The notes under the pieces: generated by a model
The model's input: the letters and a program-made list of their open reading frames with translations, nothing else
Databases searched by the model: none
Told to the model about the DNA's origin: nothing
Shown: one piece after another, positions 543 to 56,748 of the stretch
Layout: each line of letters opens with the position of its first letter
Position numbering within the stretch: the stretch's first letter is position 1
Assembly (NCBI GenBank): GCA_005887895.1
Contig: VBPC01000272.1
Span: 5,561-69,560 of the forward strand
Direction: 5' to 3'
Source: Candidatus Rokuibacteriota bacterium
GTDB taxonomy: Bacteria > Methylomirabilota > Methylomirabilia > Rokubacteriales > CSP1-6
DNA: 64,000 nt
Program-made: the position numbers and the translations under genes

Positions 543-611
543 CATGGGGGCCCCGACATGGCCCCCAAACCCCCGTCCGTTCGGCGCGCCCCGGCAAAGC
601 CGTGGCGCGCC
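543..611 (+). repeat. Two-hairpin intergenic repeat (REP-like), copy 1
   Basis: catgggggccccgacatggcccccaaaccccc...ggcgcgccccggcaaagccgtggcgcgcc. Hairpin 1 pairs GGGGGCC with GGCCCCC. Hairpin 2 is a GC-rich stem. The element starts directly after the DinB stop codon. Confidence 0.85.
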
Positions 612-677
612 TCAGTCACGCGCGCCCCGGCACATCCGAGGCGCTCCCCTGTCGCCGGTACGAGACCGTGGGGTGAA

Positions 678-750
678 GAGGAGCGCCAGGGCTCCGCCGG
701 GGCGCTCCGAACCTTTGGGGGCTTGGGGGCCATGTCGGGGCCCCCATGTG
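678..750 (-). repeat. Two-hairpin intergenic repeat (REP-like), copy 2, inverted
   Basis: The reverse complement reads cacatgggggccccgacatggcccccaagcccccaaaggttcggagcgccccggcggagccctggcgctcctc. It ends 3 nt from the stop codon of the minus-strand HTH gene. Confidence 0.85.
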
Positions 751-752
751 GA

Positions 753-983
753 TCAATCGCGGATCCAGTTCTCCGCGGGCGGGATCTCCGGCGCGCCGCC
801 GCGGTCCAGCCGGAGCAGCGCCTCGACCTCGGCGCGCCGGTACAGGCGCTGCCGCTTGATGCCCTGGCGGTAGCTCTTGAGGATGCCGCGGCTGACGTAG
901 GCGTACAGCGTCTCGCGCTTGACGCCGAGCAGCCGTGCCGCCTCCTCGACCGTCAGGAACTCCTCGCCGTCCAGGATCACCAT
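753..983 (-). CDS. Small helix-turn-helix DNA-binding protein (MerR/excisionase-type HTH)
   Basis: MVILDGEEFLTVEEAARLLGVKRETLYAYVSRGIL is a typical HTH_17-like motif. I chose ATG 983. The longer ORF start at 1061 would sit inside the AT-rich promoter region. Confidence 0.6.
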   Translation of the reverse strand: MVILDGEEFLTVEEAARLLGVKRETLYAYVSRGILKSYRQGIKRQRLYRRAEVEALLRLDRGGAPEIPPAENWIRD

Positions 984-1042
984 CGCTCCCGAGGCTATCA
1001 GAAGCCGTCCGACCCCGCTGCGTCGGCCGCCGTCACGTACAC

Positions 1043-1071
1043 TTGAATCAATATAAATCATGTAGTATCAA
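1043..1071 (+). promoter_or_regulatory. Candidate sigma70 promoter for the citrate synthase-like gene
   Basis: TTGAAT (1043-1048), 17-nt spacer, TATCAA (1066-1071), inside the only AT-rich patch of this intergenic region. It is flanked by the inverted hexamers ACTTGA and TCAAGT. Confidence 0.3.
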
Positions 1072-1113
1072 GTATCCAGCGGGGCCACCAGACATACGCC
1101 GCCGGAGGACGAC

Positions 1114-2268
1114 ATGGACAGCGCGTGGAAAGCCGGACTCGAGGACGTGATCGCCGCCCGCTCCGCCGTCTGCGCGATCGACGGCGCGGCCGGGCGCCTC
1201 TACTACCGCGGCTACGAGATCGGCGACCTGGCCGCGGTCGTGCCGTTCGAGGACGTCGTCTGGCTGCTGTGGTTCGGCGAGCTGCCGTCGGCGGCGCAGG
1301 CCCGCGAGTTCCGCGCGCGACTGCGCGCCGCCCGCGAGCTGCCGGCGCCCGTCCTGGCGCTGCTGCGTACGCTGCCGCGCGACTGCCATCCGCTCGACGC
1401 GCTGCGCACGGCCGTGTCGCTCGCGGCTGCGCTCGACCCCGACGTGCGGGCCAACGACGCCGAGGCGAACCTCCGCAAGGCGATCCGGCTCACGACGCTG
1501 GTGCCGGCGACCGTCGCGGCCTGGCACCGCATCCGCACGGGTCGGGAGCCGGTGCCGGCGACGGTGCCGGCCGACTCCCACGCCGCCTGGTTCCTCACGC
1601 TCCTCGAGGGCGCGGCGCCGACGCCGGAGGTCGCGCGCGTCATGGACGTCACGCTGACGCTGCACGCCGACCACGAGTTCAACGCCTCCACGTTCGCCGC
1701 CCGGGTGGCGGTGGCCACCTGGGCCGACCTGCACGCCGCGATCGTCGCCGCCGTCTGCACGCTGAAGGGGCCGAGCCACGGCGGCGCCAACGAGGACGTT
1801 CTCGTGATGCTGCGCGAGATCGGCGATCCGGCCAAGGCCGAGGCGTTCGTCGAGAGCCGGCTCGGGGGGCGCGGCGCGCTGAGCCGCCAGGAGCGCGCCA
1901 ATCCCAAGACCCGCATTCCGGGCTTCGGCCATCGCGTCTACCGCGTGGACGACGCCCGCGCCCGCGTGCTGCGCGGCATGGCCAAGTCGATGGCGGAGGC
2001 CACCGGCCACCAGCGTCTCTTCGAGGTCGCCGAGCGCCTGTACGACGCCATGCGCGCTCGCACATCGCTGCCGGTCAACGTCGACTTCTTCTCCGCCGTC
2101 GTCTACGACGCCCTCGCCATCCCGCCCGACTTCTGCACCTCCATCTTCGCCACCGCCCGCATCGCCGGCTGGTGCGCTCACACCCTCGAGCAATACGCCG
2201 ACAACCGCCTCATCCGCCCCCGCGCCGACTACACCGGCCCCGCCCCCCGCCCGCTCCCACCCCGATGA
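1114..2268 (+). CDS. Citrate synthase family protein (citrate or 2-methylcitrate synthase-like)
   Basis: 384 aa. GRLYYRGYEIGDL, the GFGHRVY catalytic-His motif and HADHEFNAST are citrate synthase signatures. Confidence 0.85.
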   Translation: MDSAWKAGLEDVIAARSAVCAIDGAAGRLYYRGYEIGDLAAVVPFEDVVWLLWFGELPSAAQAREFRARLRAARELPAPVLALLRTLPRDCHPLDALRTAVSLAAALDPDVRANDAEANLRKAIRLTTLVPATVAAWHRIRTGREPVPATVPADSHAAWFLTLLEGAAPTPEVARVMDVTLTLHADHEFNASTFAARVAVATWADLHAAIVAAVCTLKGPSHGGANEDVLVMLREIGDPAKAEAFVESRLGGRGALSRQERANPKTRIPGFGHRVYRVDDARARVLRGMAKSMAEATGHQRLFEVAERLYDAMRARTSLPVNVDFFSAVVYDALAIPPDFCTSIFATARIAGWCAHTLEQYADNRLIRPRADYTGPAPRPLPPR

Positions 2269-2711
2269 GCGATGAGCGATCGATCCCCGAACTCTGACAG
2301 CGTGCAGCCAACCCCAAGACGCGCTCCGATCGCGGACGCACACGCCGCGGCGCCACACGGAGACAGCCGACCGCTCGCCCGACGCGGGAGCCAGCCGATG
2401 AGAAAAATCGAGCGCCCCCGAGCCCGAAGCGCGAGAGGGAGCCGACGGCTCGCCCGAATGGGCGAGCCAGCGCCCGAGACCAACCCCGCGCCGCGCGGCG
2501 CGACACACCGCCACGCGAGAATCCATCACGCGAAATGGCCGCTGGGAAGCAGTAAGCGGGAGCGGCGGGCGGGGGGCAGGGGCCAGGGACGCGTCCCCCG
2601 CCATCCCCGGCGGGCGCCGCGCTTCGAAGTTCCGCAGCCGGACCTACGCCGCAGGCCTCGTGGTCAACGGCCCCTGCCCCCCGCCGGCCGCCGCGCCCGC
2701 CGCGGCGACGT

Positions 2712-3239
2712 TCACTTCTTGACGATCACGCCACAGGCGATGCGGGCGCCGGAATTCCCCGTGGGGTCGGTTTTGAAGTCGTCCGGGGCGGCGTGGATGA
2801 CGAGCGCGGAGCCGTCCGAGTCGAAGATGGACGTGGGGCCGTTGCCGAGCGTGAACAGCTCGGTCGTGCTCTCGAGGCGTCCTTTGCCGTCGGGCCCGAC
2901 CGTCAGGTTCGGCAGGTCCCCCGCGTGCGCCCCTCTCGGATTCAGCGCGCCGTGCTCGCGGTTCAGCGGATTGAAGTGGCCGCCGGCCGAGGCGAAGTCC
3001 GGCGGGTCGCACTTGCCGACCGTGTGGACGTGAACGCCGTGCTGTCCCGGCGGCAACCCTTGCACCTCGAGCACCACGCGCACCGTGTTGGCGACCTGCG
3101 TGAACGTGGCGGCGCCGACCGGCTGGCCGCCGGCGTTCTTCATCTCGGCCCGGGCGGTGTTGTCGGTGTTGGACGGCGTGCCCATCCCGGCGCACCCGGC
3201 GAGAAGCAGCGACGCGACGACGGCGACGAACGCTCTCAT
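2712..3239 (-). CDS. sodC: Cu/Zn superoxide dismutase, lipoprotein-type signal
   Basis: 175 aa starting at ATG 3239. Signal peptide plus LLAGC lipobox. The motifs HGVHVHTVGKC, GGHFNP and ARIACGVI match SodC. Confidence 0.9.
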   Translation of the reverse strand: MRAFVAVVASLLLAGCAGMGTPSNTDNTARAEMKNAGGQPVGAATFTQVANTVRVVLEVQGLPPGQHGVHVHTVGKCDPPDFASAGGHFNPLNREHGALNPRGAHAGDLPNLTVGPDGKGRLESTTELFTLGNGPTSIFDSDGSALVIHAAPDDFKTDPTGNSGARIACGVIVKK

Positions 3240-4435
3240 GGCTGGTGTCCTCCACGTGCAAAGTCGTGCTTGGCCTTCTGGAGCGCCTCCGGCGAGGCGA
3301 GCAGGTCTACCGCGGTCAGGGCCAGCGCCTTGGCGCCGGCCACCAGGCCCGTGCGGGCCAGCGGCGAGCGCGCCCACTCGGCGAACTCGCGCGAGTGGCC
3401 GGGCACGCCATCGGGCGAGATCCGGATGTAGGGATGGATCGTGGGCAGGCGCTGGCTCACGTTGCCGCAGTCGGTGGAGCCGAAGCCGGCCTGCCCGTCG
3501 TCGGGATCCTCCGGGAAATCGATCAGCTCGAGGTTCCTCGCGAACAGTCCCGCCATCGTCGCGTTCGGCTTGAGCGGCTCGTGCACCGTCGGATCGTGGG
3601 TGACGCTGGCGCGGCAGCCGGTGGCGGCGGCGGCGCCCTCGGCGGCGGCGGTGAAGCGCCGCAGCAGCTCCCAGCAGTAGTCGACGGAGATCGAGCGCAG
3701 GTAGAACTCCGCGCTGGTGTACTCCGGGATGATGTTGGCCTGCTCGCCGCCCCTGGTGATGATGCCGTGCACGCGCGCGTCGGGACGGAGCTGCTGGCGC
3801 ATCGCATCGAGGGCGTTGAAGAGCCCGATCACCGCGTTGAGGGCGTTGACGCCGCGCCACGGCCACGACGAGGCGTGGGCGGCCTGGCCAAAGAACTCGG
3901 CCTTCGCCTTGACGATGCCGAGGCTCGGGCGCCACACCTGCGTCCCGCAGCGGCCGTGGATCATCATCGCGGCGTCCACGTCCTTGAAGACGCCGGCCTC
4001 CATGAGCTTCACCTTGCCGGCGCCGCCTTCCTCGGCGGGGGTGCCGATCACCTGGATCTGGCCGGCGAACGGCAGGCGTCCGAGCGCGACGGCGAGGGCG
4101 GCGCCGGCGCCGCAGCCGGCGGTCGCGATGACGTTGTGACCGCACGCGTGCCCGATGCCAGGCAGCGCGTCGTACTCGGCCATGATGGCGATCGTCGGCC
4201 CCGCGCCGCGGCCGGCGATCGTGGCCCGGAAGGCGGTGGGCAGCCCGCCTACGCCGCGCTCGACGCGCGCGCCGTGCTTCTCGAGGAACTCGGTGAGCCA
4301 CGCCTGCGCCTGCTCTTCCTTGAAGGCCAGCTCGGGCGTGGCGTGGATGCGGTGGGACAGCGCCTCCAGCTCGTCGGCGAGGCGATCGACGGTCGCGGCG
4401 ATGTCGAGCTTCAGCGGGTCGGCGGCCGCGCTCAC
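3236..4435 (-). CDS. M20-family amidohydrolase/peptidase (AbgB/M20D-like), paralogue 1
   Basis: 399 aa from GTG 4435, which forms a GTGA overlap with the upstream stop. Motifs EYDALPGIGHACGHN and GTPAEEGGAGK. The rest of the 1089-aa track ORF is an out-of-frame artefact. Confidence 0.85.
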   Translation of the reverse strand: MSAAADPLKLDIAATVDRLADELEALSHRIHATPELAFKEEQAQAWLTEFLEKHGARVERGVGGLPTAFRATIAGRGAGPTIAIMAEYDALPGIGHACGHNVIATAGCGAGAALAVALGRLPFAGQIQVIGTPAEEGGAGKVKLMEAGVFKDVDAAMMIHGRCGTQVWRPSLGIVKAKAEFFGQAAHASSWPWRGVNALNAVIGLFNALDAMRQQLRPDARVHGIITRGGEQANIIPEYTSAEFYLRSISVDYCWELLRRFTAAAEGAAAATGCRASVTHDPTVHEPLKPNATMAGLFARNLELIDFPEDPDDGQAGFGSTDCGNVSQRLPTIHPYIRISPDGVPGHSREFAEWARSPLARTGLVAGAKALALTAVDLLASPEALQKAKHDFARGGHQP

Positions 4436-5598
4436 CTGGCCGCCTCGAACTCGGCGCGCGCCCGCTTCACGTGACCCGGATCGGCCAGCAGGTCGTAGGT
4501 CGTCATCGCCATCGTCTTGGCGGCCTGGCACATTCCCTGCCGCGCCAGCGGCGTGACGGCCGCCGCCTCGAACGCCCGCGAGTGGATCGGCGTCCCGGTC
4601 GGCGCGATCTGCACCATGGGCTGGATGGCCGGGATCACCTGGCTCACGTTGCCGATGTCCGAGGACCCGAGCCGATCGGGCGCCGGCGACTCGGAGGCGC
4701 CGACCGCCGTCATGTTGGCGCGGAACAGCTCGAGCAGCGTGTCGTTGCGCTTGAGCGGCTCGTAGGGCGCTTCCTTGTCGATCACGCTCAGCGAGCAGCC
4801 GGTGGCCTTGGCGGCCCCCTCGGCGCAGGCGACGACGCGCTTGTGCAGGTCCCACATGTACTCGAGCTTCGCGGCGCGCACGTAGAAGGTGCAGGCGGCC
4901 ATCTCGGGAATGATGTTCGGCGCGGCGCCGCCGTGCGTGACGATGCCGTGGAGGCGCGCGTCGGGTCGGATCTGCTGGCGCAGCATGCTCACGTTGTTGA
5001 ACGTCTGGATCACCGCGTCGAGCGCGTTCACGCCCTCCCACGGATCGGCGGAGGCGTGGGCGGCCTTGCCGCGGAACTCGAAGCCGACCCGCACGATGCC
5101 GAGCAGGTCCTGGTGCAGGATCCAGCGATCGAAGCCGTGGATCATCATCGCCGCGTCGACGTCCTTGAACACGCCGCCCTGGATGAGCTTCACCTTGCCG
5201 CCGCCGCCCTCCTCGGCCGGTGTGCCGATCACCTGCACGCGCCCCGGGGGCAGCTGGTCGCGCACGGCGGCCAGCGCGGCGCCGGCGCCGGCGCCCGCCG
5301 TCGCGATGACGTTGTGACCGCAGGCGTGCCCGATGGCCGGCAGCGCGTCGTACTCGCACAGGATCGCGATGGTGGGGCCGCGGCCGTTGTCGATCGTGCC
5401 GCGGAACGCCGTCTGGACACCGGCCACTCCGCGCTCGACCTTGAAGCCCTGCGCGCTCAGGAAGTCGCCGAGCCAGCCGGCCGCCTTGACCTCCTGGAAA
5501 CCCAGTTCCGGATTGTCGTGGATCTGTCGCGAAAGTTTTTCCAGGTCGTCGGCCAGGCGGTCCACTGCCTGAGCGATGAGGTCCTTGACTGCGCCCAT
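4432..5598 (-). CDS. M20-family amidohydrolase/peptidase, paralogue 2
   Basis: 388 aa. It carries the same motifs (EYDALPAIGHACGHN, GTPAEEGGGGK) and is collinear with paralogue 1. Confidence 0.85.
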   Translation of the reverse strand: MGAVKDLIAQAVDRLADDLEKLSRQIHDNPELGFQEVKAAGWLGDFLSAQGFKVERGVAGVQTAFRGTIDNGRGPTIAILCEYDALPAIGHACGHNVIATAGAGAGAALAAVRDQLPPGRVQVIGTPAEEGGGGKVKLIQGGVFKDVDAAMMIHGFDRWILHQDLLGIVRVGFEFRGKAAHASADPWEGVNALDAVIQTFNNVSMLRQQIRPDARLHGIVTHGGAAPNIIPEMAACTFYVRAAKLEYMWDLHKRVVACAEGAAKATGCSLSVIDKEAPYEPLKRNDTLLELFRANMTAVGASESPAPDRLGSSDIGNVSQVIPAIQPMVQIAPTGTPIHSRAFEAAAVTPLARQGMCQAAKTMAMTTYDLLADPGHVKRARAEFEAAR

Positions 5599-5977
5599 GG
5601 AAGTTCTCCCCGGGATCGTGGTGGATGACCGTGCCGGGCCGCTGCCGCCGGCCTGCGGGGTGAACTATAGCACCGCTGTCGCGCTGGGCCCGGCTCCGGG
5701 CAGGAGGCGCTCGGAGGCTCCGCGGGCCGCTCGCGCGGCGCGCGAGCGGCCGCGGGCGGGTGACACTCGGCGGGCTGTGCGCGCTCCGGGCACGGCTCGA
5801 CGGCCGCGGAGGGCGCACGCTCCGTGTCGTTGACCGGTAACAGCGCGAAGAGGGCGACCACGAGCCACGGACCGGTGATGATCGCCACGGCGTCACTGCG
5901 AGGGCACGACCGGCGGCTGGCGGTTCTCGTTTGCGGTCCCGAAGCTCGGGACCGTCGGCCGGGAGTATAGTCCACTC

Positions 5978-6895
5978 GTGAACGCCTCCGTGACGCTCGG
6001 CGTGGCGATCCCTCAGACCTTCATCCACGAGCCGGTCGACGCCGGCCGGATCAAGGAATTCCTTCGCCACGCCGAGGCGCTGGGCTTCGCGAGCGCCTGG
6101 GTCGTCGAGCAGATCCTCGGCTCGGCGCCGAGCCTCGAGTCGGTCACGCTGCTCGCGTACGCGGCCGCGGTCACCGAGAGGCTGCGCCTGGGCTCGGCGG
6201 TGCTGCTCACGGCGCTGCGGAGTCCTGTGCACGTCGCCAAGAGCCTGGCCACCATCGACCAGCTCAGCCACGGCCGCCTGATCGTCGGCGTCGGGCTCGG
6301 CGGCAGTCCCAGGACGTATCCCGCCTACGGGCTCAGCGCCGAGCGTCGCGCCGCCCGGTTCGCCGAGGGGCTGCGGCTCGTGAAGCGACTGTGGACGGAG
6401 CCTCGCGTGACGATGGCCGGCGAGTTCTTCCGCCTGGAGAACGCCTCGATGGAACCGAAGCCCGTCCAGAAGCCGCATCCGCCGCTGTGGTTCGGCGGTC
6501 ACCATCCGCTGGCGCTCCGGCGCGCGGTCGAGCTGGGCGACGGTTTCATCGGGGCGGGCTCGGCGTCGACGGCGACGTTCGCCGACGAGGTCACGGCGTT
6601 GCGCGCGATCCTGGCCGAGCGGGGGCGGGCGGCGTTCCCGATCGGCAAGCGCGTCTACGTGGCGCTCGATCGCGACCGGTCGCGCGCGGGCAAGCGACTG
6701 GCCGAGTGGTTCGGCGCGTTCTACGGCAAGCCGGCGCTGGCCGAGGACGTCTCGGTGTTCGGCGACGCCGACGCCTGCGTCGAGGGCCTGCGCGCGGTCG
6801 TCGCCGCCGGCGCCGGCTTCCTGATGCTCAACCCCGTGTTCGACGAGCTCGACCAGCTCGAGCGGCTCGCCGCCGACGTCGCGCCCCGCCTCTGA
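5978..6895 (+). CDS. LLM-class (luciferase-like) flavin/F420-dependent oxidoreductase
   Basis: 305 aa. The segment GSAVLLTALRSPVHVAKSLATIDQLSHGRLIVGVGLG is typical of luciferase-like monooxygenases. A TATAGT box lies 6 nt upstream of the GTG start. Confidence 0.8.
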   Translation: MNASVTLGVAIPQTFIHEPVDAGRIKEFLRHAEALGFASAWVVEQILGSAPSLESVTLLAYAAAVTERLRLGSAVLLTALRSPVHVAKSLATIDQLSHGRLIVGVGLGGSPRTYPAYGLSAERRAARFAEGLRLVKRLWTEPRVTMAGEFFRLENASMEPKPVQKPHPPLWFGGHHPLALRRAVELGDGFIGAGSASTATFADEVTALRAILAERGRAAFPIGKRVYVALDRDRSRAGKRLAEWFGAFYGKPALAEDVSVFGDADACVEGLRAVVAAGAGFLMLNPVFDELDQLERLAADVAPRL

Positions 6896-6921
6896 CCGCG
6901 CCCGCGCCCGGCTTGAACGGA

Positions 6922-6937
6922 ATATGAATATTCATAT
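6922..6937. promoter_or_regulatory. Perfect 16-bp palindrome; candidate ArsR/SmtB operator overlapping the promoter
   Basis: ATATGAATATTCATAT has a TGAA-TA-TTCA core. It sits between TTGAAC (6913-6918) and an ATATAT -10-like box, in a 30-bp almost pure AT stretch immediately upstream of the ArsR gene. Confidence 0.6.
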
Positions 6938-6940
6938 ATA

Positions 6941-7300
6941 TTGTCTTTCGTGTCCCCGCCCGGCTCCGGGCCGCTCCAGGCGTTCAAGGCCGAGTTCTTC
7001 AAGGCGCTGGCCCATCCGCTCCGCATCCGGATCCTCGAGCTCCTGATCGGCGGCGAGCGCAGCGTCCTCGAGCTCCAGCGCGCGCTGGACGCCGAGCAGC
7101 CGATCGTCTCCCAGCAGCTCGCCGTGCTGCGCGCCAAGCGGATCGTGCGGGCGCGCAAGGAGGGCACCACCGTCCGCTACGCGGTCGGCGACCCGGAGAT
7201 CCGCGCGCTGCTCGAGGCCGCCCGCCGGATCTTCAACAACCAGCTGATCGGCAGCCGCAGCATGCTGCGCGAGCTGGCCCGCGAGCGGCGGCGGCGCTAG
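6941..7300 (+). CDS. ArsR/SmtB-family transcriptional regulator
   Basis: 119 aa. FKALAHPLRIRILELL and QPIVSQQLAVLRAKRIV form a winged-HTH ArsR signature. The start is TTG 6941 or GTG 6950. The stop TAG shares one nucleotide with the next gene's GTG. Confidence 0.85.
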   Translation: MSFVSPPGSGPLQAFKAEFFKALAHPLRIRILELLIGGERSVLELQRALDAEQPIVSQQLAVLRAKRIVRARKEGTTVRYAVGDPEIRALLEAARRIFNNQLIGSRSMLRELARERRRR

Positions 7301-7815
7301 TGCTGCTCTTCTCGAAGATCCTCCGCACCGGCCTGGCGACCGAGCCGCTGATCGCCGGCGACGACACCCTGCTGACGCTCGCCCGCGAGGTGGAGGCGCG
7401 CACCCGGCGGCTGCTCGGCCGGGCGCTGGCGATCCGCGAGGTCGACGCCGGCTCCTGCAACGGTTGCGAGCTGGAGATCACCGGGCTCATGAGTCCCGTG
7501 TACGACAGCGAGCGCTTCGGCATCCACTTCGTGGCCTCGCCGCGCCACGCCGACCTGCTGCTGGTCACCGGCCCGGTGACCCGCAACATGGAGGTGCCGC
7601 TGCGCAAGACGTGGGAGGCGACGCCCGATCCCAAGCTGGTCGTGGCCGTCGGCGACTGCGCGCGGACGTGCGGCGTCTTCCGCGGCAGCTACGCGATCGT
7701 CGGCAGCGTGGACGCCGTGGTGCCGGTCGACGTGTTCGTCGACGGCTGTCCGCCCGAGCCCGCCGACATCCTGCGCGGCATCCTGGCCGCGCTCGGCCGG
7801 CGGCCGGGACGCTGA
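7300..7815 (+). CDS. NuoB / group-4 hydrogenase small-subunit-like FeS protein
   Basis: 171 aa. Four Cys are spaced for one 4Fe-4S cluster: GSCNGCELE, GDCARTCG and VDGCPP. Confidence 0.85.
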   Translation: MLLFSKILRTGLATEPLIAGDDTLLTLAREVEARTRRLLGRALAIREVDAGSCNGCELEITGLMSPVYDSERFGIHFVASPRHADLLLVTGPVTRNMEVPLRKTWEATPDPKLVVAVGDCARTCGVFRGSYAIVGSVDAVVPVDVFVDGCPPEPADILRGILAALGRRPGR

Positions 7816-7828
7816 CCGCGGCGCGCCG

Positions 7829-39834: not shown

Positions 39835-39869
39835 TGGCCCGCCCCTCCAAGTCCTGGTCGAATGATGGA

Positions 39870-41177: not shown

Positions 41178-41278
41178 GCCGCGAAGGCGGGGCCGGTGGG
41201 GTGGACCTCCAACCACGGGCACAGCGCCCCCCGCTGCGGTAGAATCCTCTCCCGCTACTGCGCGACTTCCTCAGCCAC

Positions 41279-42165: not shown

Positions 42166-42179
42166 TGCCAGGGTCTCCC

Positions 42180-42647
42180 TCACATCCGGTCGTAGACGTC
42201 GACGTAGCTCACGGAATGACCCTGGCCATCGCTCAGCACGCCCTTGCAGGTCATCTGCTTTCGGTTCGCGGAGACCATGCATGTCTGGGTGTCCGATCGA
42301 CCGGCGGGCCCATTGAACGTCGCCTGGAGCGTCTCATCCGCCATCCGGGCCGAAGCGGTCGTATCACTGCCGTGCTGAGCGTCGCCGGCGGGGTCGGCCT
42401 CGAACGTCACGACGTGTCGCTCATCGTCGGGCGTGACGATCGTCACGGACCAGGCCACGGATGTTCCATCCGCTCGCGATACCTCGCTCACTACATCCTT
42501 CGGCGCCGGCTCGCCTGGCGGCAGCTTTGATTGCGCCCGGTTCCAGTGCCACCGCCCCACGAACGGGCTGTCCTGTGCGTACCCGGCGCTGGCGGCCAGC
42601 GCGCCGCAGAGCCCCATGACGAGCGCCGTGCTCCGAATCCCAATCAT
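42180..42647 (-). CDS. Secreted hypothetical protein (beta-rich, about 155 aa)
   Basis: ATG 42647 is preceded by GGAGGA. The signal peptide is MIGIRSTALVMGLCGALAASAGYA. Confidence 0.6.
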   Translation of the reverse strand: MIGIRSTALVMGLCGALAASAGYAQDSPFVGRWHWNRAQSKLPPGEPAPKDVVSEVSRADGTSVAWSVTIVTPDDERHVVTFEADPAGDAQHGSDTTASARMADETLQATFNGPAGRSDTQTCMVSANRKQMTCKGVLSDGQGHSVSYVDVYDRM

Positions 42648-42783
42648 CGTGTCCTCCACGCTGCTCCGCGCTCTCTGCGCTCTTCGGCGTGTCACTGCGC
42701 GGAGTTGAGTTTCCCTGGTGACGAGCAGCACCGACACGGGTGCCAGCAGCGCGAACGTCAACCGCTTCCCATTCTTGGGCGCG

Positions 42784-43104
42784 TTACCGATCGTTGACAC
42801 CGCCCGTCGTGCCACCACCGAGCTCCGTGTCACGAGGCGCGCCGATCGTGCTGTCGAGTCCGCCGGTCGTCCCCACGCCGGGGCGTCCATCGAGACCCGA
42901 CGGGGTATCGCGCGGACTCCCCACGCTCGAGCCGGCCGCCGGAAGCGACATCCACCCGCTTCCGTACGACGACGACCCGCTGCCGTACGACGACGTGGCA
43001 CCGCCCGACCCGAAGCCGCGCGAACCGCCGGTGATCGTGCCGACCGTTCCGGCCGCGATGAAGACGACGACGCTCACCGCCACCACGCGCTTGCCACCGC
43101 TCAT
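42784..43104 (-). CDS. Membrane-anchored Gly/Ser/Thr-rich protein
   Basis: 106 aa from ATG 43104, with a GGAGG-rich upstream region. It has one N-terminal TM helix followed by a low-complexity G/S/T tail. Confidence 0.45.
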   Translation of the reverse strand: MSGGKRVVAVSVVVFIAAGTVGTITGGSRGFGSGGATSSYGSGSSSYGSGWMSLPAAGSSVGSPRDTPSGLDGRPGVGTTGGLDSTIGAPRDTELGGGTTGGVNDR

Positions 43105-43253
43105 GAGTCCCTCCCGATCCTCCTGAATGTTGAGAGAGGTGCGCGGGGTCGAGGGCGTCGAGCGCCGGAGAGATTCGCAAGGAGCCGACAGTTCTGAAAC
43201 GGCGCGAGGTCCAGCCGGTGTCACAAGAGCGTGGACACGAGGGGTGAGGAGCC

Positions 43254-43808
43254 ATGTTGAGACGCGCGCTGCACGACATGACCGGACTGCGTATTCATGC
43301 GACCGACGGCGACCTCGGGCACGTGCACGATGTGTACGTCGACGACGGCCAGTGGCGGGTCCGGTACTTCCACGTCGACTCGGGTGACTGGTTTCTCGGT
43401 CGACACGCGCTGCTCGCGCCGACGATCGTCGAGTCGATCGACTGGGATGGCGGTCGCATCGCCGTGGCCATCAGCCGCGAGGCCGTTCGGAGCAGCCCTG
43501 ACATCGACTCGCACAAGCCCGTCTCGCGCCAGCACGAACCGCAGTGGCAGCAGTACGTCCAACTTCACAAGCTGCTGATCGAGATGCGCGGGCACGAGGT
43601 GGTCGCGTCACCGGTTGAGCAGACGAAGAACGACCCACATCTCTGGCGTGCTCGCACGCTCCGTCACTACGGCGTCGAGACGCGCGAAAAGGAGCCCGGC
43701 CGAGTCGACGACCTCCTCGTCGCTCCGGATGAGTGGACGATCCGTTACATCGCCGATTACCTTGCTTTCCTCTGTCCGGGGCACGTCTCCCAACCGCCCG
43801 AGTGGTGA
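43254..43808 (+). CDS. PRC-barrel domain protein (two PRC-like repeats)
   Basis: 184 aa. The pattern L.G..I.A.DGDLGHV.DVYVDD..W.VRY..VD appears at the N-terminus and recurs near residue 135. Confidence 0.65.
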   Translation: MLRRALHDMTGLRIHATDGDLGHVHDVYVDDGQWRVRYFHVDSGDWFLGRHALLAPTIVESIDWDGGRIAVAISREAVRSSPDIDSHKPVSRQHEPQWQQYVQLHKLLIEMRGHEVVASPVEQTKNDPHLWRARTLRHYGVETREKEPGRVDDLLVAPDEWTIRYIADYLAFLCPGHVSQPPEW

Positions 43809-43975
43809 TTCTGCGCGCAGTTGCGACACCACTGGACCATTGCCGCGCACTGCGGGCACGTCCTCGCTCTGTTCAGACGGTCTTCCTGGAACGCGGGGCA
43901 CGGTTGGCGCCCTTGCGAGTACGGGCTGATCTCGTTGGCCACGACAACCATGCAACGCTGCGGCGGTGCCGCGTG

Positions 43976-44422
43976 TCAAGGGGTCTTAACGCGGATCTCC
44001 GGTGCCGTCAGCGAATAGTGGCACGTGGCGGGCATCCGCATGGACGCCAGGGCCCCGTAATGAAGCGCCGCGATGCCGCTCCCCATGACGACGCTGCCGG
44101 CAAGCGCCCGAAACCACCCCATCGTCGGGCGGCTCACCACGAAGAAGGCCACCGCCGAGGTGAAGACGCCGGCCAGCAGAGACAGCACGGTCCTCGGCCA
44201 GTCGTAGAGCACTGGAACCGGCAAGACGAAGGGGAGCATCGCGACGTAGTGCATCGACCAGATACCGATTCCCCGCGCCACGGCGCCGCCGCCGAGCCAC
44301 CAGACGCGAGCCCGGCCGCGCGTGGCCGTGACCCGACCGCCAAGATCCAGTGCAGGGTACGCGGCCAGCACCGCGATCACGATCGACAGAGCAACCAGGC
44401 GGTAATCGTAGAAGCCCACCAC
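43976..44422 (-). CDS. Stand-alone, apparently truncated MHYT sensor domain
   Basis: 148 aa with four TM helices carrying two MHY-type motifs (WSMHYVAM, AALHYGALASM). From memory, the canonical domain has six helices with three motifs plus an output domain. Confidence 0.55.
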   Translation of the reverse strand: MVGFYDYRLVALSIVIAVLAAYPALDLGGRVTATRGRARVWWLGGGAVARGIGIWSMHYVAMLPFVLPVPVLYDWPRTVLSLLAGVFTSAVAFFVVSRPTMGWFRALAGSVVMGSGIAALHYGALASMRMPATCHYSLTAPEIRVKTP

Positions 44423-51007: not shown

Positions 51008-52501
51008 ATGAAAACGGCCGTCGCGATGTCCCTTTTGCTCGCCGTGGCGCTGCCGGCGTGGGCCCAGTCGGCGCCACCGGCCGCGCCCGGCGCCGCCAAG
51101 CCGGCAACGGCCGACAAGCGTCAGCCCGCCGCCAAGAGTCCCGGCCAGAAGATCGATGCCCGCGCGGTCCTCCAGGCGATGGAGGAGGCCTTCAGCGCGG
51201 TGGCGGACCGTGTCACCCCGGCGGTGGTCAACGTCAGCACGATCCCCAAGCGCACGCCCCCCGGCACGACCGACGACCCCGAACGATTCCGGGATTACTT
51301 CGGTGAAGAGTTCTACGACCGGTACTTCAAGCGGCGGCCGCGCGAGGAGCCTCGGGCCAGCGGCTCGGGCGTGCTGGTGGATCGGGCCGGATACATCTTG
51401 ACGAACAATCACGTCATCGAGAACGCTCAGGACATCACCGTGCGCCTCTCCGATGCGCGGAAGTTTCCGGCGACCCTGGTCGGGCGTGACCCGAAGACGG
51501 ACCTGGCCGTGCTGAAGGTCGACGCGCCGGGGCCGCTGCCGACGGCGGAGCTCGGCGACTCCGAGCGCCTTCGCGTGGGGCAGTGGGTCATCGCGATCGG
51601 CAATCCCTTCGGCCTCGATCGCACGGTCACCGTGGGCATCGTCTCCGCCACCGCCCGCAATCGCGTCGGCGTGACAACCTACGAGAACTTCATCCAGACC
51701 GACGCCTCGATCAATCCCGGCAACTCCGGCGGTCCGCTGCTGAACCTCGACGGCCGCGTCATCGGCATCAACACCGCGATCGTCGCCGCCGGCCAGGGCA
51801 TCGGCTTCTCGATCCCGATCAACGAGGCGAAGGTGGTGATGAGCCAGCTGATCGCGAACGGCCGAGTGGTGCGCGGCTGGCTCGGCGTCGCCATCCAGGA
51901 CGTCACCGACGAGCTGGCCTCGAGCTTCGGCGTGCGCGAGCGCGAGGGCGTCCTCGTGGCCGACGTGATGAAGGGCGGGCCCGCCGAGGTGGCCGGACTG
52001 CGTCCCGGCGACGTGATCGTCGAGCTCAACGGCAGCAAGATCCGCGAGGTCCCCGAGCTGCAGCGGCGCATCGCCAACGTCGCCCCCGGTCAGAGCGTCG
52101 CGATCGCCGTCGTGCGCGATCGCGCCACCCAGCGGCTCAAGGTCCGCGTGGGCGAGATGCCCAGCGAGGAGCCGCTGATCGCGTCCGTCGACGCCGGCCC
52201 CGAGGGATTCGGGCTGCAGGTCGAGCCGCTGCCGCCGGACGCCGCTGACCGGTTGAGCCTGCCCTTCAGCGAGGGGCTGCTGGTCACGGACGTGGCCGGC
52301 GGCGGGCCCGCCGACCGTGCCGGGCTCCGTCGCGGCGACGTCATCCTCGAGGTGGGCCGCCAGGTCGTGCACGACGCGCCGGCGCTGCAGCGCGCGCTGT
52401 CGGCCGTGCCGGCCGGGCGCTCGGTCCTCCTGTGGGTGCACCGGCCCGGCGGTGGCGGGCACAACCAGTACCTCGTGCTGGAGCGGGACGCCGGCCGATG
52501 A
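51008..52501 (+). CDS. HtrA/DegP-family periplasmic serine protease with two PDZ domains
   Basis: 497 aa with a signal peptide. The catalytic triad context is TNNHV, DLAVLKV and GNSGGPL. Confidence 0.9.
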   Translation: MKTAVAMSLLLAVALPAWAQSAPPAAPGAAKPATADKRQPAAKSPGQKIDARAVLQAMEEAFSAVADRVTPAVVNVSTIPKRTPPGTTDDPERFRDYFGEEFYDRYFKRRPREEPRASGSGVLVDRAGYILTNNHVIENAQDITVRLSDARKFPATLVGRDPKTDLAVLKVDAPGPLPTAELGDSERLRVGQWVIAIGNPFGLDRTVTVGIVSATARNRVGVTTYENFIQTDASINPGNSGGPLLNLDGRVIGINTAIVAAGQGIGFSIPINEAKVVMSQLIANGRVVRGWLGVAIQDVTDELASSFGVREREGVLVADVMKGGPAEVAGLRPGDVIVELNGSKIREVPELQRRIANVAPGQSVAIAVVRDRATQRLKVRVGEMPSEEPLIASVDAGPEGFGLQVEPLPPDAADRLSLPFSEGLLVTDVAGGGPADRAGLRRGDVILEVGRQVVHDAPALQRALSAVPAGRSVLLWVHRPGGGGHNQYLVLERDAGR

Positions 52502-53940
52502 TGGCCGCCGACCTGCTCGAGCCACCGACGCTCTCGCGGCGCGGTACCGTCCTCGTCGTCGACGACGAGGACGGCGTGCGCGCCTCCATCCGCGCGATCC
52601 TCGAGGGCCGGTGCGAGGTGCTGGAGGCCGAGACCGGCGCCGCCGCGCTCGAGGTGCTGCGGGCCCGGGACGTCGATCTCGTCATGCTCGATCAGCGGAT
52701 GCCCGGCGAGCCCGGCATCGACGTGCTGCCGCGCGTGAAGGCCGCCGACCCCTCGACGGTGGTCGTGCTGGCCACCGCCGTCCACGACGTGCGAACGGCC
52801 GTGGAGGCGCTCAAGCGCGGCGCCTACGACTACATCACCAAGCCGTTCGACGTGGACGACATCCTGATGCTGGTCGAGCGCGCGCTGGAGAAGCGCGCCC
52901 TCGAGCGCCAGGTGCTGTGCCTGCAGTCGGCGCTCACGCCGGCCGGCATCGAGACGCCGGACGGCTTCGAGGGACTGGTCGGCCGTCAGCCGGAGATGGT
53001 GCGCATCTACCAGCTCATCACCCAGATCGCGACCACGCCGACCACCGTGCTGATCACCGGCGAGAGCGGGACCGGCAAGGAGCTGGTGGCGCGGGCGATC
53101 CACCAGCGCAGCGATCGCGCCGGCCATCCGTTCGTGGCGGTCAACGTGGCGGCCATTCCCGAGACGCTGGTCGAGTCCGAGCTGTTCGGCCACGAGAAGG
53201 GCGCGTTCACCGGCGCCCACGCCCGCCGCCTCGGCAAGTTCGAGCTGGCCCAGGGCGGCACGATCTTCCTGGACGAGATCGGCTCGCTGCGCCTGGATCT
53301 GCAGACCAAGCTCCTGCGCGTGCTCCAGCAGCGCGAGGTGGAGCGGCTCGGCGGCAGCCGCGCGATCCCCGTCGACGTGCGCGTGCTGGCCGCCACCAAC
53401 GTCAACCTCCGGCAGGCCGTGCGCGACCGCGCCTTCCGCGATGATCTCTACTATCGCCTCAACGTGGTGCCGATCCACGTCCCCCCGCTGCGCGAGCGGC
53501 GCGAGGACATCGCCCGGCTGGTCGAGCACTTCGTGCGCAAGTTCGCCCGCGAGTGCCACCGCGACGTGCGCGGCGTCTCGGCCGGCGCCCTGGCGGCGCT
53601 GACCCGCTACGACTGGCCCGGCAACGTGCGCGAGCTGGAGAACGTGATCCAGCGCGCGGTGGTGCTGGCCCGCGCCGCCGTGCTGCACCTGCAGGACGTG
53701 CCGCTGGACGTGGCGATGCCGGAGACGGTCTCCCTGCTGGCCGAGGATGCGCTGCCGCTGCGGGAGGCGTGCGATCAGTTCGAGCGCCAGTACGTGGTAC
53801 GGACGCTGGAGCGCGCGCAGTGGAACGTGAGCCGGGCGGCGCGCCTGCTCGGCGTCCATCGCAATACCGTGCTGGTCAAGCTGGCCGCCTGGGGCGTGCA
53901 CCGTCCCGGCGCGTCGGAGGGAAGGAGCGCGACTCCGTGA
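52498..53940 (+). CDS. sigma54-dependent response regulator (NtrC family), second copy
   Basis: 480 aa with an ATGA overlap with htrA. VLVVDDEDG...LVMLDQRMPG, GESGTGKE, ESELFGHEKGAFTGA and a C-terminal HTH are present. Confidence 0.9.
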   Translation: MMAADLLEPPTLSRRGTVLVVDDEDGVRASIRAILEGRCEVLEAETGAAALEVLRARDVDLVMLDQRMPGEPGIDVLPRVKAADPSTVVVLATAVHDVRTAVEALKRGAYDYITKPFDVDDILMLVERALEKRALERQVLCLQSALTPAGIETPDGFEGLVGRQPEMVRIYQLITQIATTPTTVLITGESGTGKELVARAIHQRSDRAGHPFVAVNVAAIPETLVESELFGHEKGAFTGAHARRLGKFELAQGGTIFLDEIGSLRLDLQTKLLRVLQQREVERLGGSRAIPVDVRVLAATNVNLRQAVRDRAFRDDLYYRLNVVPIHVPPLRERREDIARLVEHFVRKFARECHRDVRGVSAGALAALTRYDWPGNVRELENVIQRAVVLARAAVLHLQDVPLDVAMPETVSLLAEDALPLREACDQFERQYVVRTLERAQWNVSRAARLLGVHRNTVLVKLAAWGVHRPGASEGRSATP

Positions 53941-55532
53941 GCCCGATTCGAGGTGTGGCCCCCGCGGTCGTGGTCATCCTCGTGGCGGCCGCGGCCTGGC
54001 TGGCGGCCGCGACGCCGGCGATGGCGCAGCTGACCGACGCCGACGTCTACGTCGCCGAGGCCACCCTGGCGATCGAGGACAAGCAGTGGGACAGGGCGCT
54101 CGACCTCCTGCGTCAGGCGCTGGCCAAGGAGCCGGACCACGTCGAGGCGCTGTACTACACCGGCGTGGCGTACATGGGCAAGCGGCAGCCAGCCGAAGCC
54201 GTCAAGTACCTGGAGCCGGCCCGGGAGAAGTCACCGACCGACACCTCGATCGCCTATCAGCTCGGACTGGCCTACGTCGCGCTCGAGCAGTACGACAAGG
54301 CGCAGCCGCTTCTCGAGCAGGCGTTCGCCCGCGATCCCACGCTCGACTCGCTCGGCTACTACGTCGGCTACCTCCGCTATCGCAAGGAGCAGTACCAGGA
54401 CGCCCTGCGCGCGTTCCGCGCGGCGCGCACCGCCGATCCCACGATCGCCGACCTCACCCGGCTGTACGCCGGCCTCTCGCTGCAGAAGCTCGGGCTGCCG
54501 GCCCAGGCCGAGGCCGAGATCGCGCAGATCGGCCAGCTCCAGCCCGCCTCGCCGCTGACCGGCCCGGCCGAGCGGCTCAAGAGCTCGCTGGCCTCCGCGC
54601 GGGAAACCACGCGGCGCTTCCGCGCCGAGGTCAAGCTCGGCGGCTTCTACGACGACAACGCGGCGGCCGAGCCGAACCAGCGGGCCGACGACCGGGCCGT
54701 CGACCTGGCGCGCCAGAACAACCGGCGGACGTTCGGCGAGCTCCTCTCGGTCGGCGCGGAGTACGACTGGCTGCGCCTGAAGGCGTGGACCGGCACGGCC
54801 GGCCTCTCGTTCTTCGGCACGCACAACAACACCCTCGGGTCGTTCGACATCGACGACTACACCGCCAGCGTGCGCCTCGCCCGGCGCGGCACGCTGTTCG
54901 ATCTGCCGACGCAGGCGGGCATCAACTTCGCCTACGACCACCTGACGCTGGGCTACCACAAGCTGGTCGATCGATACTCGGCCTCGACCTACCTGGCCCT
55001 CGTGGAGAGCGCCCGGCACCTCACGAACTTCCAGGCGCGTGTGGAAGGCAAGGACTACAGCCATCTGCCGGACACGCCGCACCAGGAGCTCCAGGATGCC
55101 ATCAACTACCTGGTCGGGTTCATCCACTTCGTGCGCTTCGAGCGGGATCGGCACTTCGTCAAGGGCGGCTTCCAGTACGACTACGACGCCACTCGCGGCA
55201 GCGACTTCGAGTACCGCGGCTATCGCTTCCTGCTGGGTGGCCAGTACACGTTGCCGTGGCGCGACGTCCGCCTGACCTACGACTTCGATCTCCACTACCG
55301 CGATTACCTGAACCGCCACGCCTTTCTTCCACTGGAACGTCCGGGCTCCGTGGAGCGGTCGGACAAGGAGTTCACGAACACGGTCCGCGCCGAGGTGCCG
55401 TTGCCCTGGTTCGTGAAGAATCAGGCGCTATTCCTGACCGGGGAGTACACGAACAAGATCGTCGACTCGAACATCAACGCCTTCAGCTACCGCCGGAACT
55501 ACGCCGCGATCTACTTCACCTGGCAGTATTAG
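53937..55532 (+). CDS. Signal-peptide protein with an N-terminal TPR domain and a C-terminal outer-membrane beta-barrel-like domain
   Basis: 531 aa from GTG 53937, with a GTGA overlap. It has TPR repeats, then alternating amphipathic beta-strands. It ends in IYFTWQY, an aromatic terminus typical of outer-membrane proteins. Confidence 0.65.
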   Translation: MSPIRGVAPAVVVILVAAAAWLAAATPAMAQLTDADVYVAEATLAIEDKQWDRALDLLRQALAKEPDHVEALYYTGVAYMGKRQPAEAVKYLEPAREKSPTDTSIAYQLGLAYVALEQYDKAQPLLEQAFARDPTLDSLGYYVGYLRYRKEQYQDALRAFRAARTADPTIADLTRLYAGLSLQKLGLPAQAEAEIAQIGQLQPASPLTGPAERLKSSLASARETTRRFRAEVKLGGFYDDNAAAEPNQRADDRAVDLARQNNRRTFGELLSVGAEYDWLRLKAWTGTAGLSFFGTHNNTLGSFDIDDYTASVRLARRGTLFDLPTQAGINFAYDHLTLGYHKLVDRYSASTYLALVESARHLTNFQARVEGKDYSHLPDTPHQELQDAINYLVGFIHFVRFERDRHFVKGGFQYDYDATRGSDFEYRGYRFLLGGQYTLPWRDVRLTYDFDLHYRDYLNRHAFLPLERPGSVERSDKEFTNTVRAEVPLPWFVKNQALFLTGEYTNKIVDSNINAFSYRRNYAAIYFTWQY

Positions 55533-56748
55533 TCACATGGGGGGCCCCGAGATGGCCCCCCACCCCCACCAATGTTCGGAGCGCCCCGGCAGAGCCGCGG
55601 CGCTCCTCTAACGCAGCGCCTCTAGCGGCGAGCGGCCGGCCGCTCACGCGCGGTCCGCTGGGCCGCGGCGTGAAGCTGTTCAGCGAATCGCCGCTGGCTC
55701 CGCCCGTCGCGGCGGCGACGTTGCTGGCCTGCTCGACCTGCCGGTCGCTGATGTGCTGGTTCGCCCCGCTCGGGGGCTGATGCAGGCGGGCCTTGTAGCT
55801 GTTGGCGATGGTCTGCGCCTCCAGCCGCGTGATGTTGCGCGGCCCGGTCGGCGGCGTGAAGCCGCTGACCCCGAGCGTCTGCAGCGCGTTCAGCGTGAAC
55901 GGCGAGCCCACGAGGCGCCCGGACTGGTCGCGCAGGAAGACGTCGACGAGGCCCGTGAGCAGCGTGAGATCGGTCTTCGGCTGGCCGGCCACCTGCGTGA
56001 CCTCGGTGATGAGCACCGTCCCGCGGACACCGGCGACCGCATTCGGCGTCTTCACGTCGATCCGCTCGCCGGGCTTCATCTTCTCCTTGGCGACGGCGAG
56101 CGCGACCCGGCCCGAGGTGATGTCGATGGTCGAGGTGCCCCCGGTCTCGGTGATCGTCAGCGAGGAGTGCTCGCGCACCGTGACCACCGCGGCGCCGCCG
56201 AGCAGGATGCGCGCGAGCGACTGATCGCCGGTCTGGATCATGTCCTGGACCCGGACCGGATCCTTGAACTTGAGCGGCAGGATCTGCGGCGCCGGCTGCT
56301 CGGTGGACACGCGCCGGACCGTCGCCGTGCCCTGCAGCGTCGTGACGAACCCGGCCGGCTTCATGTCCTGCGCGAACGCCGCCAGCGGCAGCGCGAGCGC
56401 GACGGCGCCCGAGGTGATGTCGATGGTCGAGGTGCCCCCGGTCTCGGTGATCGTCAGCGAGGAGTGCTCGCGCACCGTGACCACCGCGGCGCCGCCGAGC
56501 AGGATGCGCGCGAGCGACTGATCGCCGGTCTGGATCATGTCCTGGACCCGGACCGGATCCTTGAACTTGAGCGGCAGGATCTGCGGCGCCGGCTGCTCGG
56601 TGGACACGCGCCGGACCGTCGCCGTGCCCTGCAGCGTCGTGACGAACCCGGCCGGCTTCATGTCCTGCGCGAACGCCGCCAGCGGCAGCGCGAGCGCGAC
56701 GGCGGCAGCGATGATCGATCCCGTGAACAGCGTCCTTGTGTGTCTCAT
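55516..56748 (-). CDS. FecR-domain secreted protein containing an exact 99-aa internal tandem duplication
   Basis: 410 aa from ATG 56748, with a GAGGAGGA Shine-Dalgarno. The signal peptide is followed by a FecR-like segment (VQDMIQTGDQSLARILLGGAAVVTVREHSSLTI) that occurs twice. The last 30 or so codons read through REP copy 6. Confidence 0.65.
   Translation of the reverse strand: MRHTRTLFTGSIIAAAVALALPLAAFAQDMKPAGFVTTLQGTATVRRVSTEQPAPQILPLKFKDPVRVQDMIQTGDQSLARILLGGAAVVTVREHSSLTITETGGTSTIDITSGAVALALPLAAFAQDMKPAGFVTTLQGTATVRRVSTEQPAPQILPLKFKDPVRVQDMIQTGDQSLARILLGGAAVVTVREHSSLTITETGGTSTIDITSGRVALAVAKEKMKPGERIDVKTPNAVAGVRGTVLITEVTQVAGQPKTDLTLLTGLVDVFLRDQSGRLVGSPFTLNALQTLGVSGFTPPTGPRNITRLEAQTIANSYKARLHQPPSGANQHISDRQVEQASNVAAATGGASGDSLNSFTPRPSGPRVSGRPLAARGAALEERRGSAGALRTLVGVGGHLGAPHVTNTAR
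55536..55606 (+). repeat. Two-hairpin intergenic repeat (REP-like), copy 6
   Basis: catggggggccccgagatggccccccacccccaccaatgttcggagcgccccggcagagccgcggcgctcc, starting 4 nt after the beta-barrel gene stop. Confidence 0.85.
56110..56703. repeat. Perfect tandem duplication, 2 x 297 bp
   Basis: 56110-56406 is identical to 56407-56703 by manual alignment. The track ORFs at 56240 and 56537 share identical N-terminal sequences. Confidence 0.9.

Follow-up and report, generated by a model that had tools for sequence, protein, structure and literature searches.

Bacterial miniature inverted-repeat transposable elements (MITEs), for example the Correia elements of Neisseria and ERIC, carry terminal inverted repeats and target-site duplications (TA for Correia). 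The MIRUs of mycobacteria are units of 40–100 nucleotides (nt) that lie in operon spacers, form tandem arrays and touch the flanking stop or start codons. Families of repetitive extragenic palindromic sequences (REPs) typically have more than 100 copies per genome, and the cognate gene for the REP-associated tyrosine transposase (RAYT) is flanked by the repeats. REPINs, each of which consists of two inverted copies of the same REP, are mobilised by RAYTs, as Bertels and Rainey are said to have reported in 2011. The Rokubacteriales, uncultured bacteria that are abundant in soil, have large genomes, and we know of no repeat family described for this order. The present analysis concerns a two-hairpin repeat that recurs in a 64,000-nt stretch of a Candidatus Rokuibacteriota genome (contig VBPC01000272.1; the whole stretch is called the window hereafter). 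The repeat probably represents a small, non-autonomous, REP-like dispersed family that is specific to Rokubacteriales (phylum Methylomirabilota), spreads as DNA and serves as a hairpin at transcript ends.

Published REPs occupy positions between same-direction and convergent open reading frames (ORFs), no more than 20 bp from a 3′ end, and the stop codon is often provided by a REP terminus (PMC3733652). The Rokubacteriales family resembles REPs and bacterial interspersed mosaic elements (BIMEs), which are short, GC-rich, palindromic dispersed units situated mainly between convergent or same-direction ORFs within about 20 bp of 3′ ends, have termini that can supply stop codons, form dimers, clusters and tandem arrangements, and have been proposed to act in termination or mRNA stabilisation (PMC3733652). 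Stable GC-rich palindromic stem-loops are present in the family, but as two different hairpins per unit: the unit is a fixed pair of unrelated hairpins with a C-run and a linker, about 90 nt in length, whereas a REP is 20–40 nt. The GTAG and CGTC superfamilies of REPs bear a conserved unpaired end tag (PMC3733652), whereas the family has no terminal tag of either kind, lacking GTAG and containing CGTC in about one-third of copies. The stem of the CGTC family is 8–9 bp with AT pairs at positions 1–2, whereas hairpin 2 of the present unit is 12–13 bp and GC-only. In addition, no RAYT was found with the family in a low-power tblastn search.

The other known systems share part of these features. 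Like REPINs, the family is non-autonomous, hairpin-forming, intergenic and long-persisting with subfamilies, but hairpins 1 and 2 share no sequence, the units are mostly single or head-to-tail, inverted pairs such as that at 537–754 of the window are exceptional, and no flanked RAYT gene was seen. Because its two hairpins differ, the family is not a REPIN. Like the Correia elements and ERIC, it consists of structured intergenic repeats of about 100 nt that are co-transcribed with their neighbours and are found in some strains but not in others. It cannot be classed as a MITE, since terminal inverted repeats and a clear target-site duplication are both absent. It shares with MIRUs the tandem arrays in spacers and the contact with stop and start codons of flanking genes, whereas MIRUs are not two strong hairpins and tend to keep the reading frame, which the periods in this family (77–96 nt) mostly do not. 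Integron attC sites were dismissed by eye, since the unit has two separate perfect hairpins in place of one long imperfect hairpin and no GTTRRRY core was seen. The only match in the window at the gathering threshold of Rfam 15 is a tRNA, and a permissive scan of one copy gave at best 23.9 bits against a threshold of 46. The literature search found no paper with the sequence of the element and none linking Rokubacteria to REP or MITE elements.

Structure of the repeat unit and its copies

Alignment of 95 distinct copies, together with position-wise information content, gives a unit of about 87–100 nt, typically about 90 nt. An earlier note, made from the window sequence alone, had put the unit at about 70 bp; the longer estimate agrees with the period of 87–89 nt in the head-to-tail arrays of loci L007, L021, L072 and L081. 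At the start of the unit, about 11 nt form an AT-enriched leader that often ends in ACAT; in 89% of copies the base before the G-run is a T. Hairpin 1 consists of G5–6CC, a 7-nt loop (CCGAMAT) and GGC5–6, is extended at the base by one or two pairs that covary, and is followed by an A, a second C-run and the linker A(A/G)CG(C/T)TCG. The GC stem of hairpin 2 encloses a loop of 3–5 nt; directly after it the consensus is CCTCGA(T/C), and the composition returns to background about 4 nt beyond the CCTCGA tail. The motif ACAT-GG is conserved at two places, ahead of the 5′ arm of hairpin 1 and within its loop. Some copies have an extra hairpin between the first and second C-runs and others have a different hairpin 2, so the family is modular.

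Both stems are supported by covariation. The structure was specified by hand, because RNAalifold on a MAFFT alignment gave a partial structure owing to an indel before hairpin 2. With this structure, 88.5% of cells in the 95 copies are paired, and compensatory cells number 187 compared with 63 ± 6 in shuffles (none of 500 reached 187); the covariation score is 0.187, compared with at most 0.048 for partners slid by 1–3 columns. Hairpin 1 is partly invariant by ascertainment, because its motif was used to find the copies, and the informative pairs are those at the base of hairpin 1 and all of those in hairpin 2. The second pair below the G-run occurs in all four Watson–Crick types (G–C in 26 copies, A–T in 24, C–G in 16 and T–A in 9), and G–T pairs are nearly absent (7 of 2181 cells). 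Compensation of this Watson–Crick-only kind is consistent with a constraint on both strands, without being proof of one. At one fixed position of hairpin 2, a C–T mismatch is present in 44 of the 95 copies; the mismatch is linked to the type of loop-closing pair and is therefore a subfamily marker, and such markers co-segregate.

Two further structural ideas were rejected. Pairing of the G-run with the second C-run, as in a two-state switch, did not hold, as the run lengths are loosely correlated and the flanks covary only at the first T–A pair. The mismatch spectrum (A–C exceeding G–T) permits no conclusion on the functional strand, as it mostly reflects one inherited subfamily (GTCRCG).

In the window, where GC content is about 72% throughout, all six copies listed in the earlier note are present. 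The hairpin-1 motif GGGGCCNNGANATGGCCCCC has nine matches with up to three mismatches (0.62 expected from dinucleotide-preserving shuffles); these represent six sites, three of which also match on the opposite strand at three mismatches. The hairpin-2 motif has six matches (0.00 expected). In an alignment of the six copies that spans about 75 nt, 41 columns are invariant. A covariance model built from the 95 copies and run without filters (R1) recovers all of them, five at 80–85 bits, and folding of single strands yields the two strong GC hairpins that had been predicted, on either strand (z −2.6 to −7.3). The features are as follows, with scores from R1.

537–637, plus strand: full copy (80.2 bits; fold −43.2 kcal/mol, z −4.0), with hairpin 1 at 545–567, the second C-run at 571–575 and hairpin 2 at 583–611; it begins right behind the TGA (540–542) of a DinB-superfamily gene (3–542).
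619–647, plus strand: extra hairpin-2-like stem, CGCGCGCCCCGG-CACAT-CCGAGGCGCTCC, between two inverted copies.
654–754, minus strand: full copy, inverted (80.2 bits), with hairpin 2 at 680–708 and hairpin 1 at 724–746; it begins 2 nt past the TGA (753–755, minus strand) of an HTH_17 gene (753–983).
15721–15821, plus strand: full copy (82.4 bits; fold z −4.6), with hairpin 1 at 15729–15751, hairpin 2 at 15767–15795 and TCTTTT directly after hairpin 2; it lies 16 nt past the TGA of a collagen-repeat gene (15004–15711).
29022–29124, plus strand: full copy, antisense (84.5 bits), flanked by two minus-strand genes assigned with Pfam, for a major facilitator superfamily (MFS) transporter (stop 29122–29124) and a thiolase-like protein (start 29017–29019).
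35460–35559, plus strand: variant copy (25.2 bits, E about 1e-3; fold z −2.0).
38974–39044, plus strand: copy (40.7 bits) whose hairpin-1 stem begins at once after the TGA (38974–38976) of a cytochrome-c-like gene (37942–38976), convergent with a PuuD-like gene (39082–39834, minus strand).
55531–55632, plus strand: full copy (82.9 bits), 3 nt past the TAG of a tetratricopeptide repeat (TPR) gene (53553–55532).

The stem at 619–647 fits the hairpin-2 pattern with three mismatches and was absent from the earlier list; R1 matches it weakly on the minus strand (620–646), as expected because the stem is palindromic. In the variant at 35460–35559, the interior of hairpin 1 is swapped for ATGGGGGGAGCA-CTGCG-TTGCTCCCCCCA and hairpin 2 is degenerate, while the G-run, the C-run, the second C-run AGCCCCCC and the linker ACCGCTCGG are retained. 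Of the two looser relatives suggested before, that at 35468–35500 is thus recovered as a member, whereas that at 36655–36700 is not supported, as R1 gives region 36642–36744 only 10.4 bits (E 0.92). The convergent FecR-domain ORF at 55516–56991 (minus strand; Pfam) reads through the entire element at 55531–55632, so that its last 30 codons or so and its stop lie in or beyond the element, and its product ends in EERRGSAGALRTLVGVGGHLGAPHVTNTAR.

Distribution, turnover and placement

An exact scan for GGGGCCNCGANATGGCCCCC in one genome per species returned more than 115 stretches from at least 45 assemblies. Among the matches listed, nearly all stretches are labelled Candidatus Rokuibacteriota, Rokubacteria or Methylomirabilota, and all are 66–75% GC (about 70%). 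A few loci are labelled Verrucomicrobiia, Acidoferrum, Acidobacteria or Nitrosotalea; they share the GC content of the rest (68–71%) and are therefore probably mis-binned. Homologues of the PuuD-like protein of the window are labelled Rokuibacteriota or Methylomirabilota by their sources, and the window is syntenic with Rokuibacteriota loci at 72–78% DNA identity. A phage or virus origin was rejected, as the motif has no match in viral contigs. Further copies exist beyond the window and their similarity persists under proper alignment, contrary to the two outcomes that would have refuted the earlier note.

The window contains six to seven copies in 64 kb, which would extrapolate to hundreds per genome, and at least 14 stretches come from one assembly. 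By contrast, 222 kb of orthologous metagenome loci gave only five matches, and R1 found none in 20.7 kb of L208, whereas the syntenic part of the window has three. The identity of copies is 0.703 within a genome and 0.679 between genomes (1 of 1000 permutations reached this), and this barely higher similarity within genomes indicates a family that is old and diversified and not the product of a recent burst.

Two observations concern isolated parts of the element and contig ends. A lone reversed hairpin 1 followed by a 6-codon mini-ORF (MKSLKK) is found in L002 (6759–6778), L022 (6766–6785) and L063 (5560–5579); in L022 its neighbours are an HTH_17-like gene on one side and a DNA polymerase IV (dinB) gene on the other. 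L002 and L063 have the same flanking sequence, but their labels, Verrucomicrobiia and Nitrosotalea, look like binning errors, given a GC content of about 71% at all three loci. Metagenome contig L123 (Ga0066679_10004943) stops within an element (2035–2073), 36 nt past the DinB-like gene; assemblies of these organisms appear to break at the repeat, in which case copy counts would be biased downwards.

Comparison of orthologous spacers shows that the short intergenic regions at gene 3′ ends have seen gain, loss and inversion of copies as well as tandem duplication and internal deletion, and that copies often lie exactly at or between stop codons. One such spacer is that between the convergent DinB-like and HTH_17 genes (window 3–983). 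The window has two inverted copies there, and L123 (100% protein identity) has the same junction as far as its end in the first copy. Loci L116–L121 and L124, which are about 93–95% identical in DNA, have one copy, after the HTH gene: all retain a counterpart of the copy at 654–754, with paired differences in hairpin 2, and that of the copy at 537–637 is absent from L116–L120 and L124. In L125 (88%), a lone hairpin 1 is present, exactly as a deletion between two hairpin-1 copies would leave. In most of the nearer loci inspected (L128–L139 and L149; 69–73% protein identity), the element is missing and the stop codons of the two genes share bases in the sequence CTAA. The cleanest pair is L126 and L127, which are 94% identical over 2 kb and differ by an insertion of about 87 nt exactly between the two convergent stop codons: L126 reads GGCCGC-TAG-C-TAATCC, and L127 reads GGCCAT-TAA-(element of about 87 nt)-C-TAATCG. 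There is no clear target duplication at this junction, at most an ambiguous TAA repeat.

A second spacer, between the PuuD-like and cytochrome-c genes, is found in four states in different genomes. It holds an unrelated GC hairpin in L208 (88% protein identity; a 3.0-Mb contig), a decayed copy that has lost about 30 nt from its interior in L204–L207 (94%), a full copy in the window, and two tandem copies in the opposite orientation in L061. In the MFS/thiolase spacer, L208 has 49 nt without the element and the window has 102 nt with it. Exact boundaries could be read from L126/L127 only, because the spacers of window/L116 and window/L208 are too diverged to align cleanly.

Placement relative to genes was determined from the coding strand of the flanks, as inferred from codon-position GC. 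On the 5′ side of the element lies the 3′ end of a same-strand gene in 65 cases and the 5′ end of an opposite-strand gene in 39; on the 3′ side lies a convergent gene in 67 cases and a same-direction gene in 28. Where both flanks were classified (n = 64), 20 copies are between convergent genes, 43 between same-direction genes and one between divergent genes, and those between same-direction genes are sense in 16 cases and antisense in 27. The upstream stop codon ends 2–9 nt ahead of GGGGCC in 39 of 64 cases, and convergent stop codons are concentrated 78–90 nt downstream, slightly past CCTCGA. As far as these predicted coding strands indicate, the placement of the family, near 3′ ends and rarely divergent, is the pattern published for REPs. 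Five of the window copies lie in the sense orientation behind a stop codon, and the distance of 0–16 nt previously claimed holds for those at 543, 750 (minus strand), 15728, 38974 and 55536. It does not hold for the copy at 29028, which is antisense to both neighbours because it is flanked by two minus-strand genes, and a strict sense orientation is not general: copies occur in either orientation to transcription.

Proposed mobility, probable role at transcript ends and competing explanations

The REP/MITE-like, dispersed-repeat reading offered in the earlier note is supported by the occurrence in at least 45 Rokubacteriales-like assemblies and by the filled and empty spacers, as well as by the orientation differences, tandem arrays, decayed copies and placement as published for REPs (PMC3733652). 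In the explanation that we favour, the elements would spread as DNA through transposition of a non-autonomous hairpin element, probably as single-stranded hairpins, for which a RAYT-type or IS200/IS605-type tyrosine transposase would be the obvious candidate enzyme. Hairpin-based ends, the lack of terminal inverted repeats, the lack of a clear duplication and the Watson–Crick-only covariation point to such a single-strand tyrosine-transposase mechanism. Purifying selection would then spare only harmless copies, those beside stop codons and away from promoters. Copies in place may serve as orientation-independent hairpins at transcript ends, in termination and/or in protection of the 3′ end from exonucleases; judged from sequence, they probably do so, the main support being the ordinary GC hairpin that occupies the same convergent spacer in L208.

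Several observations weigh against parts of this explanation. No associated transposase was found: when 1.14 Mb, including the window, were searched by tblastn with E. coli RayT as query, nothing came out below E = 2, although power was low with so distant a query and with target DNA short of whole genomes. The absence of a RAYT from the window, as stated in the earlier note, is consistent with this weak test. The genes flanked by pairs of copies that were checked are housekeeping genes, as judged by reading their translations. The elements have no terminal inverted repeats, the AT-rich leader and the CCTCGA tail not being mutually inverted, and no clear target-site duplication is seen in L126/L127. 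A GTAG tag is present anywhere in only 5 of 95 copies; CGTC occurs between hairpin 1 and the core of hairpin 2 in only 30 of 95, most copies having GCTCGG or GTTCGG there. The similarity of copies within and between genomes gives no sign of a recent burst or of current mobility. As regards a role in termination, a terminator-like scan of 1–20000, which includes three copies, passed only 15767–15795, and with the rest read directly a T-run follows just one of the six window copies; most copies therefore lack the arrangement of an intrinsic terminator, a GC hairpin followed directly by a T-run. Operons also contain some copies, as in L079 and L093, where one separates hisB from hisH (genes named by reading ORF translations); a strong terminator at such a position would be harmful. 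The earlier suggestion of a terminator or mRNA stabiliser is accordingly plausible in view of the unrelated hairpin in L208, but the single T-run and the copies inside operons fit REP-like protection of 3′ ends or partial termination better than strong termination.

Candidates for an associated transposase gene were considered individually and rejected. The genes bracketed by pairs of copies are, by their translations, atpC (L069) and a laccase-domain (YfiH-like)/yggS pair (L085). A weak RayT match in L093 is located in the hisB/hisH region. Next to the lone hairpin 1 of L002, L022 and L063, only the 6-codon mini-ORF adjoins.

A stricter version of the mobile-element explanation, which is possible but considerably less likely, is that the units are RAYT-mobilised REPs or REPINs in the strict sense, or hairpin elements derived from IS200/IS605 (PATE-like). 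In this version, one or both hairpins, in the form of single-stranded DNA (ssDNA), would be recognised by a Y1 HUH transposase, which would insert the element 3′ of a short target without duplication. Such a mechanism agrees with the hairpin-based ends, the L126/L127 junction, the twofold conservation of ACAT-GG in the loop and flank and the REP-like distribution, and the near-absence of G–T pairs would be expected if both strands or ssDNA matter. It is harder to reconcile with the mutually unrelated hairpins, which leave no inverted pair of the REPIN type, with the low frequencies of GTAG and CGTC, and with the distance from stop codon to stem, which varies over 0–9 nt so that no fixed target offset is visible; nor was a Y1 transposase found in the 1.14 Mb searched, in a test of low power.

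A bolder proposal along the same lines appears rather unlikely. Rokubacteriales would possess a novel transposition system acting on single-strand DNA and directed at the stop-codon junctions, which are AT-rich in a genome of 70% GC. The twice-occurring ACAT-GG would provide its cleavage or recognition sites, and its elements would carry stop codons at both ends, gradually replacing generic terminator hairpins across the order. If this were true, the stop codons at both ends would keep both convergent genes terminated after insertion.

The strong covariation of both stems, the conservation of unpaired segments and the sense position of five of the six window copies after a stop codon might equally suggest a functional RNA motif in 3′ untranslated regions (cis-regulatory or resembling a small RNA) that is conserved by selection and is not mobile. 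This is improbable, in that copies lie in either orientation across genomes, with antisense copies outnumbering sense ones between same-direction genes, and are reversed between genomes at one orthologous spacer. Presence and absence between relatives with 93–95% DNA identity, tandem arrays, internal deletions, the near-absence of G–U pairs and the lack of any Rfam family near its gathering score likewise argue against an RNA motif.

It is very doubtful that the copies are instead double-stranded or cruciform DNA sites for a host protein, whether for nucleoid organisation, as a gyrase- or IHF-type site like those in BIMEs, or as a signal of the DNA-uptake type that doubles as a terminator. Function in either orientation, Watson–Crick-only compensation, the conserved CCGAMAT loop, the enrichment between convergent genes and the recurrent C–T mismatch in hairpin 2 are all in keeping with a protein site; however, there is no candidate protein, the mismatch tracks subfamily markers and may be merely inherited, and the uneven density among relatives (none in 20.7 kb of L208 compared with three in the window) would be unexpected for an essential chromosomal site. 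Finally, GC-rich hairpins at gene ends and the one copy with a T-run are what ordinary intrinsic terminators, alike only through GC-richness and without common origin, would provide, but this explanation can be dismissed: it is contradicted by the alignment, in which the sequence of loops, linker, second C-run and tail has been kept in at least 45 assemblies, motif counts far exceed those of composition-matched shuffles, and most copies have no T-run.

Neighbouring features and significance

The window contains other repeats that are separate from the family. The gene at 15004–15711, upstream of the copy at 15728, encodes collagen triple-helix G-X-Y repeats (Pfam PF01391, E = 4e-15) and has internal 9-nt periodic repeats. 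Within the FecR-domain ORF, a 297-nt unit is present in perfect tandem at 56096–56689 (99% identity), a recent, in-frame duplication of 99 codons. Direct repeats of about 100–140 nt with 81–90% identity, about 1180 nt apart, at 3953–4208 and 5134–5386 in the region of 3.2–6.5 kb suggest an internally duplicated or paralogous gene segment. Two genes for sigma-54-dependent response regulators (33222–34619 and 52432–53940) share 73% DNA identity at 33810–33986 and 53128–53304; they are assigned through the Pfam domains found in their syntenic counterparts from L204 and L208. The pair cross-matches many Rokubacteriales loci and therefore belongs to a paralogous family that can confuse synteny searches. 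A long low-complexity stretch at 39865–40203 has a periodicity of 9–12 nt and is rich in GTC/CTC on the plus strand, and the second-position GC of only 0.16 in the minus-strand ORF at 39870–40217 suggests an acidic tract rich in Asp and Glu. A single tRNA-Met gene (41279–41353) lies in the segment of lowest GC content in the window (0.676 at 40001–44000, compared with about 0.72 elsewhere), with 18-nt direct repeats slightly downstream at 41828–41941, and this region could be an island integrated beside the tRNA.

The family is real and appears to be undescribed, and it is of a well-known kind of small mobile intergenic repeat. The conservation of hairpin 1 across the order, the insertion exactly at stop-codon junctions and the replacement of generic hairpins are notable, yet unsurprising. 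The element explains breaks of metagenome contigs at gene ends, as where L123 ends inside a copy, and it flags spurious C-terminal extensions in gene calls, in which read-through ORFs yield peptides containing WGAPTWPP and the like. With its covariance model, it provides a taxon-specific marker by which wrongly binned contigs can be recognised. The general picture of bacterial REP-like elements is unchanged by the family, which offers a natural system for the study of how hairpin repeats colonise stop-codon junctions and assume the role of terminators.

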